DNA of 11,207 bases from Candidatus Heimdallarchaeota archaeon (GTDB lineage: Archaea > Asgardarchaeota > Heimdallarchaeia > Heimdallarchaeales > Heimdallarchaeaceae). Numbering within the stretch: position 1 is the stretch's first letter; the number at the start of each line of letters is the position of its first letter. The translations under genes were made by a program, and so were the position numbers. Where the stretch lies: NCBI GenBank assembly GCA_016840095.1, contig JAEOSZ010000100.1, positions 1-11,207 of the forward strand, written 5' to 3'. Shown here piece by piece: positions 1,483 to 2,669 of the stretch. A model generated the notes under the pieces. It made no database searches. It had not been told where the DNA came from and saw only the letters and a program-made list of their open reading frames with translations.

Positions 1483-2217
1483 CTAACTTCTTTTTTGGAT
1501 GAATTTCTTTAACCAACCTGGCATAATGTAACCTAAGTAACCCAGAAAAACACCAGCTAAAGCAAAAGACCAACCTATATAGTAGAATGGAGAATAACCT
1601 TTTCCTAGAGAGGCCATTACGCTATCTAAAGCAAAGCTTACAAACAAAATACTCACACAAATTCCATAAATAGCTATAAGATTGAATCCAGTTTTTGGCA
1701 GTTTTTCTGTATTCATTTTTGCTTCTTTAAATGCATATACAGATATTATAATATAAGTTACTAGAGAGATTAATGCCAATAATATCATAATGTAAAACTT
1801 CTTTGCAAGTAATCCAAAAGATGTATCTGAAAACCAATAAATTATGGCTTCGATTGACATTCCTATCGCAATTCCATTTATACCTATAAACGCCAGTACA
1901 AAATCAACTCCTTTGTTAGCGAACACAATCTCAACAAATGCAATAACAAAGCAATTAGAGACTGCCAACAATAAGAATGCGGACATATTTCCAATGTCAG
2001 TGTATGCAACTATTTCGTTTCCCAAGAAATACCCTAACCATCTACCTAATGCTGAAGATAAGCTTGCTAGAGAAAAACTAGCAAAAGTCAGTAATAGGTA
2101 TAATACAGGTTTCTTCTTTCTTTGAATATACTTCATCAAAATCAAAATAAAAACAATTATCAACATTACACTAATGAATGTTTCAAATATAACAGCAGAG
2201 AGAATTACTTCAGCCAT
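1483..2217 (-). CDS. Seven-transmembrane receptor-like membrane protein (Asgard-type 7TM; not a rhodopsin)
   Basis: Seven hydrophobic segments. Basic clusters after TM1 (KYIQRKKK), after TM5 (KEAKMNTEKLPK) and at the C-terminus (PGWLKKFIQKRS) imply N-out/C-in topology. No Lys in TM7. Start placed at ATG 2217 (MAEV..., 244 aa) because GGTGA lies 5 nt upstream. Confidence 0.75.
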   Translation of the reverse strand: MAEVILSAVIFETFISVMLIIVFILILMKYIQRKKKPVLYLLLTFASFSLASLSSALGRWLGYFLGNEIVAYTDIGNMSAFLLLAVSNCFVIAFVEIVFANKGVDFVLAFIGINGIAIGMSIEAIIYWFSDTSFGLLAKKFYIMILLALISLVTYIIISVYAFKEAKMNTEKLPKTGFNLIAIYGICVSILFVSFALDSVMASLGKGYSPFYYIGWSFALAGVFLGYLGYIMPGWLKKFIQKRS

Positions 2218-2222
2218 ATTTA

Positions 2223-2227
2223 TCACC
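2223..2227 (-). promoter_or_regulatory. Archaeal Shine-Dalgarno GGTGA formed by the last codons (TGG TGA) of the longin gene
   Basis: Minus strand reads ...TTT TGG TGA TAAAT ATG GCT... Confidence 0.65.
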
Positions 2228-2669
2228 AAAATGAATCAGAAACGATTTTTGTTGCTTTTCTTTTAACAATCTCCTTATCTCCCTTTTCAATCATTTCCTC
2301 AACGTATTTTTCTATTTCATCGATCTGCTCTTCTGTAAGTAAATTGTATTCTCCTATGTTTGGAAAATTACCTGAAATATTCTGTAAGATTTCAGAGGTT
2401 ATTTCATGTATAATAGGTCTTTCTACTTCTATGTCACCTTTACGAAGTAAAGCTACCGCAATTTCATCAGATAATTCAATGAAAACTTCAAATTTCTTTG
2501 TATCTACAAACTTTGGAACACCTACATCAATTTCTTCCATTGCTGATTGAATTGCTGTTAATATTCCACTGAAAAGAGCTTGATCTGAAAAGCTGCTATC
2601 ATCATCTCCTCTATCCACAACTACAATAGGTATTCCGGATCTAGAAATAATATAAACAGCTTGAATCAT
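2223..2669 (-). CDS. Longin/roadblock-like (profilin-fold superfamily) domain protein
   Basis: MIQAVYIISRSGIPIVVVD (beta1-beta2 with SG turn), DQALFSGILTAIQSAMEEI (helix 1), three short strands, then helices: the beta-beta-alpha-beta-beta-beta-alpha-alpha pattern of stand-alone Asgard longin-like proteins. ATG 2669 preferred over TTG 2672; ATTTAAAT at 2693-2700 is at TATA distance. Confidence 0.75.
   Translation of the reverse strand: MIQAVYIISRSGIPIVVVDRGDDDSSFSDQALFSGILTAIQSAMEEIDVGVPKFVDTKKFEVFIELSDEIAVALLRKGDIEVERPIIHEITSEILQNISGNFPNIGEYNLLTEEQIDEIEKYVEEMIEKGDKEIVKRKATKIVSDSFW

Follow-up and report, generated by a model that had tools for sequence, protein, structure and literature searches.

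A conserved gene pair encoding a longin-fold protein and a stand-alone seven-helix membrane protein in Heimdallarchaeota, with a plausible link to small GTPases

Whether a longin and a seven-helix membrane protein encoded side by side form one functional unit, and whether that unit acts on a small GTPase, is the question raised by a stretch of 11,207 nucleotides from a Candidatus Heimdallarchaeota genome (GCA_016840095.1, contig JAEOSZ010000100.1, positions 1 to 11,207), here called the window. Small GTPases and longin/roadblock proteins are both greatly expanded in Asgard archaea. In the window, open reading frames (ORFs) and their translations define, on the minus strand, a gene for a longin-fold protein of 148 residues, P0001 (2669..2223), followed by one for a stand-alone seven-transmembrane (7TM) protein of 244 residues, P0002 (2217..1483). 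A sequence-only reading of this DNA had proposed that the two constitute a receptor-to-GTPase signalling module. Comparative genomics gives good support to the pair as a real, conserved two-gene module with functionally coupled products. The best explanation, slightly favoured over its negation, is that longin and 7TM protein are two subunits of a membrane module which acts on a small GTPase encoded in trans.

The two genes are most visibly tied at their junction (2215..2228, minus strand), which has the form expected of translational coupling. The longin gene ends in TGG (2228-2226) and TGA (2225-2223), followed by the spacer taaat and by the ATG of the 7TM gene (2217-2215); GGTGA (2227-2223) is thus both the end of the longin gene and a Shine-Dalgarno-like (SD) site 5 nt ahead of the 7TM start, a feature that the sequence-only reading had pointed out and that can be read directly at the junction. 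Among the starts of the 12 ORFs of the window, the 7TM start alone is preceded by such a site, and ahead of the first genes, TATA-like boxes rich in A/T lie some 25-35 nt from the ATG and there is no SD. Leaderless first genes with upstream A/T boxes and no SD are the usual picture in archaea, and the longin gene, given that it has no SD, is probably leaderless or short-leadered. Two TATA-like A/T boxes (2693..2720, minus strand) lie 24-31 and 44-51 nt upstream of its ATG, ATTTAAAT at 2700-2693 and TTTAAAAA at 2720-2713, and 20-45 nt past the 7TM stop is a T-rich stretch (1439..1463, minus strand), which includes a T6 run (1444-1439) and could act as an archaeal terminator of the oligo-T type. 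A promoter before the longin gene and a terminator after the 7TM gene are plausible and should be taken at that level, because both types of motif are expected about once per kb per strand in DNA of 33% GC (about 1.6 for T6). From the two-gene operon with one TATA box and a terminator that had been read here, the coupling is retained, the single box becomes two, and the outer signals are reduced to plausible ones. Orthologous pairs likewise have tight or overlapping junctions, the gap in most of them being between about -13 and +18 nt.

The soluble product had been described as longin-like, and structure prediction distinguishes longin from roadblock. The AlphaFold2 (AF2) model of P0001, based on an alignment of 22 sequences (predicted local distance difference test, pLDDT, 75.6), places strands at residues 2-9, 14-19, 53-56, 60-66 and 70-77, and helices at 28-46, 84-101 and 113-147. 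This beta-beta-alpha-beta-beta-beta-alpha-alpha order, with no N-terminal helix, is the longin arrangement and not that of roadblock. The first Foldseek matches were COPZ1, AP2 sigma/mu, Sec22b, VAMP7, Ykt6 and TRAPP subunits, and SRX/SR-beta and Ragulator components were also among the fold matches. VIA, a structure search independent of Foldseek, gave a Z score of 14.2 to VAMP7 (root-mean-square deviation 2.6, 118 residues), 13.3 to Sec22, 13.0 to synbindin and 11.7 to a solved Lokiarchaeota Roadblock-Longin protein; in the same search, MglB, MglC and MP1/p14 aligned to residues 1-104 only, at Z of about 8. In the model, beta-1 starts at residue 2 and the chain closes with two C-terminal helices, so it does not correspond to the Roadblock/LC7 (MglB) type. 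P0001 is, judging from the model, a longin-fold protein, and the earlier description holds.

At the level of sequence, P0001 does not rise above the Pfam cut-offs for longin/Roadblock (PF13774, PF03259, PF19036). Its Robl_LC7 match is below threshold (E 0.068; 13.4 bits vs a cut-off of 23), as are similarly weak matches in 19 of 22 relatives (best 1.2e-5), and no Fuz_longin_1 match was found in Pfam. Searches of Pfam, NCBIfam and PDB sequences returned no family for either P0001 or P0002. The 56 homologues of P0001 are all from Heimdallarchaeota. Its last helix (residues 113-147) is long and ends in a conserved ...KRKATKIxSDSFW tail, with K132, R137, A139, T140, S144 and W148 invariant in the family near the C-terminus. 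The loop between beta-1 and beta-2 holds an invariant S9-R10-x-G12-x-P14 before beta-2, which resembles a GP motif and is not one. R84 is invariant too. In the longins of GTPase-activating proteins (GAPs) such as FLCN, NPRL2 and SMCR8/C9orf72, the GP motif lies just before beta-2, with the catalytic arginine finger beside it (PMC12290439). The beta4-beta5 loop of P0001 has no Arg, and an equivalent of the arginine finger could not be placed.

The membrane protein is modelled with greater confidence (pLDDT 81.6) as a compact bundle of seven long helices with a short additional helix at residues 234-243, which is amphipathic and resembles helix 8 of G protein-coupled receptors (GPCRs). The loops and tail predicted to be cytoplasmic contain 14 lysine and arginine residues, compared with 3 outside, and this charge distribution places the N-terminus outside and the C-terminus inside; the 7TM, N-out/C-in and helix-8-like topology claimed beforehand is thereby borne out. 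The extracellular loops are very short, at 3-10 residues. P0002 contains no Pfam or NCBIfam domain and no output domain, and TM7 (residues 210-231) contains no Lys, as had also been noted. Two functional assignments were rejected on residue content, that of a retinal-binding rhodopsin because of the missing TM7 Lys, and that of a PAQR/alkaline ceramidase-type hydrolase because P0002 has no His anywhere and hence no zinc-binding histidines. Its fold is matched by designed GPCR-like folds (Z 16.4), mGlu1 (13.7) and GABA-B (13.2), and also by the sodium-pump rhodopsin KR2 (13.4), the adiponectin receptor (12.3) and the ceramidase ACER3 (12.2), with all Foldseek E-values at least 6.5e-3. No GPCR family was matched by P0002 in Pfam, and 127 relatives, which match 16 families at E <= 0.01, likewise match none for GPCRs. 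On the model, P0002 is best described as a GPCR-like or rhodopsin-like bundle and not as a member of a GPCR family, its likeness to GPCRs being one of fold and topology only.

The P0002 family comprises 343 representatives at 50% clustering, nearly all of 240-270 residues, and 93 of the 201 genomes sampled from the phylum contain it (E <= 1e-8). Weak sub-threshold matches to 7TMR-DISM_7TM occur in 7 of the 127 relatives (best E 2.7e-5) and not in P0002 itself, and PF07695 has no match in the genome; the language-model neighbours of P0002 are labelled 'histidine kinase 7TM region', which serves as a lead only. Among the 150 representatives listed (89-384 residues) no fusion of the 7TM protein to a longin or to an output domain was found; the two longest of those listed carry unrelated C-terminal extensions, one of them with zinc-ribbon-like Cys pairs. 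A search of proteins of 465-2000 residues, which is weak evidence, also returned no fusion.

Conservation of the pairing was assessed in 83 Heimdallarchaeia genomes searched with both the longin and the 7TM profiles. A 7TM gene lies directly downstream on the same strand of 37 of the 49 full-length orthologous or paralogous longin genes. Among these are genomes with two or three paralogous pairs, two each in the closed genomes G026 and G074, and the source genome has a second pair on another contig (G000:C126, 19690-20133 / 18959-19678). The pairs also appear as annotated adjacent hypothetical genes in metagenome-assembled genomes of Heimdallarchaeota (AB_125 06460/06450; H7644_07930/07925), and in some lineages (G015, G054, G163) two 7TM genes follow the longin in tandem. 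A quick maximum-likelihood (ML) tree, on which all statements on the 7TM phylogeny rest, puts the window 7TM in a clade with 99% support and 19 Heimdall-class rows, nearly all of them with a longin partner or one bearing the tryptophan-containing (W) tail described below. The proposed conservation of adjacency in Asgard archaea is therefore upheld within Heimdallarchaeia, with other gene orders elsewhere, and the fusions that had been envisaged were not found in the searches above. Two side observations concern these families. In one genome, the 7TM gene after the longin (G178:C337:5224-5946; L020:5212-5946) is broken by two in-frame TAG codons, and may be either a pseudogene or a case of read-through. 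Elsewhere, soluble proteins of 353-364 residues (L015:7286-8377 and L014:7768-8826, both minus strand) begin with a window-type longin (hhalign E 2e-19), continue for about 210 residues that belong to no known family, and are flanked by small proteins of 3-4 TM segments.

Beyond this arrangement, a census of 100 loci of the 7TM family, with neighbours called locally, covered 103 full-length 7TM genes; 37 adjoin a longin, roadblock or W-tail partner and 6-9 adjoin a GTPase, counts which are inflated by kinship. In Lokiarchaeia (Loki_b32 and others) and Atabeyarchaeia, a longin of 137-141 residues lies after the 7TM gene or divergent from it, and this partner matches Pfam Fuz_longin_1 in 7/7 tested (30.1 bits vs a cut-off of 26.1 for the first member). 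Fuz_longin_1 is the first longin of Fuz/Mon1/HPS1. Some Lokiarchaeia place a canonical Robl_LC7 protein (E 9.5e-21) before the 7TM gene. A second Heimdallarchaeia family, f6, has a protein of 151-156 residues ending in ...KDALW followed by two 7TM genes, and this partner aligns end to end with the window longin family (24% identity, E 0.008). In Jordarchaeales, a 635-residue protein with a related longin region stands between or before 7TM genes. The window longin family aligns with the Lokiarchaeial Fuz-type longins over the N-terminal 48 columns only (hhalign E 8.9e-5, probability 60%); as hhalign finds only a tail or an N-terminal segment in common, shared ancestry of the partner families is supported only as far as the longin fold. 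With at least five gene orders and three longin/roadblock subfamilies, the gene neighbourhoods indicate that inherited gene order alone cannot explain the linkage.

Some larger partners were recorded alongside these. The proteins of about 635 residues from Jordarchaeales and a related family (L027:1789-3699, plus strand; L082:3657-5564, minus strand; L090; L081) have a window-longin-like N-terminal region, a remainder with no known domain and the ending ...YD[VI]F[VIT], and they adjoin 7TM genes of about 320 residues. Partners encoded upstream of the 7TM in the Heimdall B3 group have the ending ...SGLW(E) (L017:6033-7769, plus strand; L100:3257-3745, minus strand); one genome has a longin-like protein of 162 residues there, and another has a protein of 578 residues which contains an alpha/beta-hydrolase (PGAP1-like) domain and overlaps the 7TM start by 9 nt.

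The connection with small GTPases comes from paralogues of the 7TM protein. On another contig of the source genome, C145, a protein of 167-196 residues ending in ...SDDLWD, an Arf GTPase (PF00025, E 6e-42) and a 7TM protein of 287 residues are encoded in succession with 6-nt gaps, and this 7TM matches the P0002 family profile over its full length (E 2.8e-20). The cassette (L095, G000:C145:4800-10600; minus strand) reads in the order SDDLWD protein (3868-4368), Arf-family GTPase (3328-3852), 7TM (2459-3319), flavin-reductase-like protein (1596-2450) and a 465-residue protein (117-1511), the last of which gives a weak Intu/CCZ1-type longin match. The Arf cassette recurs in a congener, and twice in one f6 genome. 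Three genomes of family f10 have the gene of a Ras-family GTPase immediately ahead of the 7TM gene (GTPase/7TM at L028:3335-3865/4132-4902, L080:1980-2546/949-1689 and L084:1490-2137/2498-3259). One Lokiarchaeial locus (L050, G135:C172; minus strand) encodes in a row two RagA-like GTPases (4679-5629, 3414-4361), a 7TM (2531-3343) and a Zn-ribbon/Roadblock-like protein of 368 residues (1305-2411); the GTPase that was scanned matches Gtr1_RagA at 4e-27, and the set has the flavour of Rag/Ragulator with a membrane partner. In the tree, the GTPase-linked 7TMs group apart from the window 7TM clade. The source genome holds at least 38 Arf-profile matches above cut-off (Arf/Ras-like genes), none of them on the window contig, and a GTPase client of the window pair encoded in trans is possible on these grounds. 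An apparent GTPase near the paralogous pair, picked up with a locally built 'GTPase' hidden Markov model, proved false, the gene encoding an ABC ATPase.

How the two proteins might touch is suggested by what they conserve. Most partner proteins end in a [DS]-x-[LFV]-W tail, in the forms SDSFW (window family), KDALW, EKAFW/REAVW (Fuz-type), SDDLW[DK] (Arf cassette) and DSGLW, and the partner families bearing it are otherwise barely alignable. A Trp occupies one of the last two positions in 14/19 and 17/23 partners. Among the other ORFs at these loci, 29/641 have one, and about 10 of these are 7TM neighbours themselves. For the membrane protein, the 30 columns best conserved among 127 representatives include 19 that fall in the cytoplasmic third of the helices, the inner loops or helix 8. 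These form motifs on the cytoplasmic face, namely KYxxRK after TM1 (K29, Y30, R33, K34), the inner TM3/TM6 ends (conserved cytoplasmic-side residues also include F94, F99, K175 and G177) and YLGYxMPxW at TM7/helix 8 (Y227, G229, Y230, P233, W235). A smaller conserved cluster, D198, Y208, F211 and W216, lies on the outer side of TM6, extracellular loop 3 (ECL3) and TM7. The 7TM protein diverges about twice as fast as the longin: against the congener G133, identity is 46% for the 7TM and 72% for the longin, and other orthologue pairs show 84% vs 93% and 65% vs 80%. We infer that the conserved cytoplasmic face of the 7TM may be the dock for the C-terminal helix and tail of the partner.

Put together, the slightly favoured explanation runs as follows. 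The membrane subunit would be a compact, output-less 7TM of an Asgard-wide family with a conserved cytoplasmic face, on which the longin probably docks via its long C-terminal helix and ...SDSFW tail. The module would most likely place a longin platform, either a GAP- or guanine nucleotide exchange factor (GEF)-type regulator or an adaptor, at the membrane, and the longin so placed would most likely act on a small GTPase encoded in trans. That the platform serves a small GTPase follows from the linkage of the 7TM family elsewhere to Arf-, Ras- and RagA-like GTPases, to Roadblock and to Mon1/Fuz-type longins; for the window pair itself, the step is a reasonable one by association, and the chances for and against it are about evenly balanced.

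Several results weigh against this explanation. As had been stated beforehand, the window has no GTPase gene, the scan of its 12 ORFs giving no GTPase family match, and none lies within about 8 kb of an orthologous pair on a contig of 124 kb. By sequence, P0001 falls into none of the longin families of GEF or GAP type. About half of the 103 sampled 7TM genes have no recognisable neighbouring partner, and the difference in 7TM conservation between inside and outside is modest (Jensen-Shannon divergence 0.35 vs 0.29, p = 0.036). Moreover, in a paralogous pair called 'B', the 7TM has been lost and the longin left intact in six genomes of the genus, and a third longin paralogue (G000:C13 and orthologues) is in every case without a 7TM. 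Right behind the longin, 5 of the 6 'B' loci keep a start-less 7TM remnant of about 20 codons with the TM7/helix-8 motif ...GYLGYxFPDWLKK... (L101:1682-1774, L103:2388-2522 and L105:2786-2869 on the minus strand; L102:2453-2545 and L106:639-731 on the plus strand), which looks like one ancestral deletion amounting to a natural 7TM knockout. Because of this loss and of the 7TM-less third paralogue, window-type longins can persist with no 7TM encoded in cis; such orphans may use another 7TM copy or have an independent role.

Other explanations differ in what they ask of the 7TM protein. It could be a true receptor, binding an extracellular or membrane ligand, changing conformation and signalling via the bound longin as GEF or GAP on a small GTPase. 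The N-out/C-in topology with helix 8 and the matches to GPCR bundles at Z 12-16 speak in favour of this, as do the weak 7TMR-DISM_7TM matches in 7/127 relatives and the histidine-kinase 7TM labels of the neighbours, and fast 7TM evolution combined with a conserved cytoplasmic face is what would be expected of diversifying sensors with a fixed transducer interface. However, no ligand site can be identified and the extracellular loops have only 3-10 residues, the fold match is generic, with microbial rhodopsins, the adiponectin receptor and the ceramidase scoring like GPCRs and no GPCR Pfam family matched, and the faster evolution may reflect only relaxed constraint on a membrane anchor. Such a receptor is a tentative proposal, and a ligand-gated GPCR-like form of it is possible with a rather low probability. 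A more specific version, in which a signal-gated 7TM binds the longin C-terminal helix and ...FW tail in its cytoplasmic cavity and the longin switches an Arf/Ras/Rag-like GTPase, must be considered unlikely; the analogy is with GPCRs, which bind the C-terminal helix of G-alpha. If true, the archaea closest to eukaryotes would have a receptor-transducer-GTPase system of their own, diversified into versions with a longin only, with Roadblock and with the GTPase in cis. Of the receptor-to-GTPase interpretation given to this DNA beforehand, which stays plausible as an inference, the GTPase link gains from the paralogues beside Arf-, Ras- and RagA-like GTPases, and 'GPCR' stands for a resemblance in fold and topology only, since microbial rhodopsins score equally well.

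A second explanation, doubtful in its turn, reduces the 7TM to a passive anchor that senses nothing and only keeps the longin, and by way of the longin a GTPase regulator, at the membrane. LAMTOR1 tethers Ragulator in this way, and SR-beta holds the SRX longin of SR-alpha; SRX/SR-beta and Ragulator components are among the fold matches of P0001. Short loops in a compact bundle would suit an anchor, and docking would agree with both the conserved cytoplasmic face and the tail shared by the partners. Against this, seven helices are costly for an anchor, the outer side of TM6/ECL3/TM7 has a conserved cluster (D198, Y208, F211, W216), and several diverged paralogues per genome suggest specificity.

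It is improbable that GTPases are not involved at all and that the longin serves a 7TM transporter, channel or enzyme as a subunit for regulation, assembly or trafficking. This would agree with the lack of a GTPase in cis in the window subfamily and of a known GEF/GAP sequence signature in the longin, but the bundle has few conserved polar residues inside and lacks His as well as any metal or retinal site, genes of related 7TMs show translational coupling to those of Arf and Ras GTPases, and every characterised class of longin/roadblock partner found beside the 7TM family belongs to GTPase regulation. Lastly, an incidental adjacency of unrelated genes sharing a transcript in one lineage, for which it can be said that tight gene packing is common in archaea and that half of the 7TM family genes have no detectable partner, is effectively refuted by the comparative data, as the linkage persists from class to class, takes at least five gene orders, involves three longin/roadblock subfamilies and is observed in about 38% (37/98 non-edge genes) vs about 2% by chance, a figure based on the rough assumption of 40 longin/roadblock genes among about 3,300.

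Among the remaining genes of the window, a GNAT acetyltransferase gene (359..1360) downstream of the pair is conserved within the genus only and lies outside the conserved unit. An upstream ORF of 74 residues (2740..2964) was considered as a third subunit and rejected, being conserved only within the genus (L005); the small ORF ahead of a paralogous pair is unrelated to it. Divergent from the pair, the plus strand at 3065-7540 encodes small multi-TM proteins (206, 135 and 179 residues) and a protein of 871 residues that has TM segments at both termini and gives weak matches of the CBM_4_9 / Ig-like type; this is probably a surface protein cluster, and it also adjoins the orthologous pair in G133. 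Further along (7613-10021, plus strand), a DUF2804 protein (E 4e-136) is followed by a 443-residue S-adenosylmethionine (SAM)-dependent methyltransferase whose N-terminal part gives a faint Zn-ribbon hint (Zn_ribbon_8 E 0.63), both apparently unrelated to the pair.

The 7TM family offers a concrete and widely conserved membrane partner for longins, of which the window holds a simple two-protein version, and the shared W-tail, the conserved cytoplasmic face and the natural 7TM deletions are handles by which the preferred explanation, a two-subunit membrane module acting on a small GTPase in trans, can be tested. If binding and a GTPase client were true, the pair would show an organisation of membrane-localised GTPase regulation that came before eukaryotic endomembranes, and would be a tractable system for receptor-like 7TM control of small GTPases in the archaeal ancestors of eukaryotes.

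An incomplete literature search found no published description of an Asgard 7TM-longin pairing. In a 2026 preprint, the Asgard-eukaryote structural clusters include '7TM proteins' that are not further specified and one termed 'class C GPCR', with no gene context. Bacterial 7TMR-DISM_7TM/HisKA_7TM modules and GPCRs have in common with P0002 a seven-helix N-out/C-in bundle (Z 12-16 to GPCR bundles). The bacterial receptor modules are fused to cytoplasmic output domains, whereas the P0002 family stands alone, and P0002 differs from GPCRs in that no GPCR family profile matches it and no heterotrimeric G protein is involved. On the soluble side, longins act on small GTPases at membranes in Ragulator-Rag, in Mon1-Ccz1/Fuz (tri-longin Rab GEFs), in SR-alpha SRX/SR-beta and in FLCN/NPRL2/SMCR8. 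The fold of P0001 is common to these eukaryotic platforms (Z 9-14 to VAMP7, Sec22, TRAPP, AP sigma, Mon1-Ccz1, FLCN and SRX), and in Lokiarchaeia the longin encoded beside this 7TM family belongs to Pfam Fuz_longin_1. In contrast, the window longin is a single domain of 148 residues and not a multi-longin complex, does not belong to those families at the sequence level, and only approximates the GP motif of GAP longins by its invariant G12-x-P14.

Within the source genome, the C145 Arf cassette shares with the window pair the 7TM superfamily, the tight coupling and a tail, SDDLW, like the window SDSFW. It differs in having an Arf GTPase between partner and 7TM, in a soluble partner which aligns with P0001 over the last 12 residues only (hhalign E 0.012), and in a 7TM group that forms a separate clade. 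Among described Asgard arrangements, the nearest by analogy is the Asgard-wide operon of a LAMTOR1-like Roadblock, a Rab-like GTPase and a DENN protein reported in the preprint by Liu et al. 2020 (10.1101/2020.10.19.343400). There too, a Roadblock-superfamily protein is paired with a small GTPase and a longin-related regulator. That operon has no membrane protein, the words 'transmembrane' and '7TM' being absent from the preprint text (10.1101/2020.10.19.343400), and the window pair for its part has neither a GTPase nor a DENN gene.

The nearest described logic, again by analogy, is that of the actinobacterial conservon (CvnA-CvnB-CvnC-CvnD; Mfp operon), in which a histidine-kinase-like membrane sensor, an MglB-type roadblock, CvnC and a Ras-like GTPase are encoded together, and which has been likened to receptor-G protein signalling (PMC4316618, PMC13343842, PMC13621833). 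Only the roadblock-superfamily protein is common to both. The membrane component is a histidine-kinase-like sensor in the conservon and a stand-alone 7TM in the window, and the roadblock of the former has Robl_LC7 topology whereas the window protein has that of a longin. The conservon operon holds a GTPase and a CvnC-type protein, neither of which is encoded in cis at the window pair (no kinase or CvnC-like gene was found in the window), and it belongs to another phylum and domain of life. The pair is a variant of membrane-sensor/roadblock-longin/small-GTPase systems, one with the GTPase presumably in trans and a stand-alone 7TM protein replacing the kinase-type sensor.

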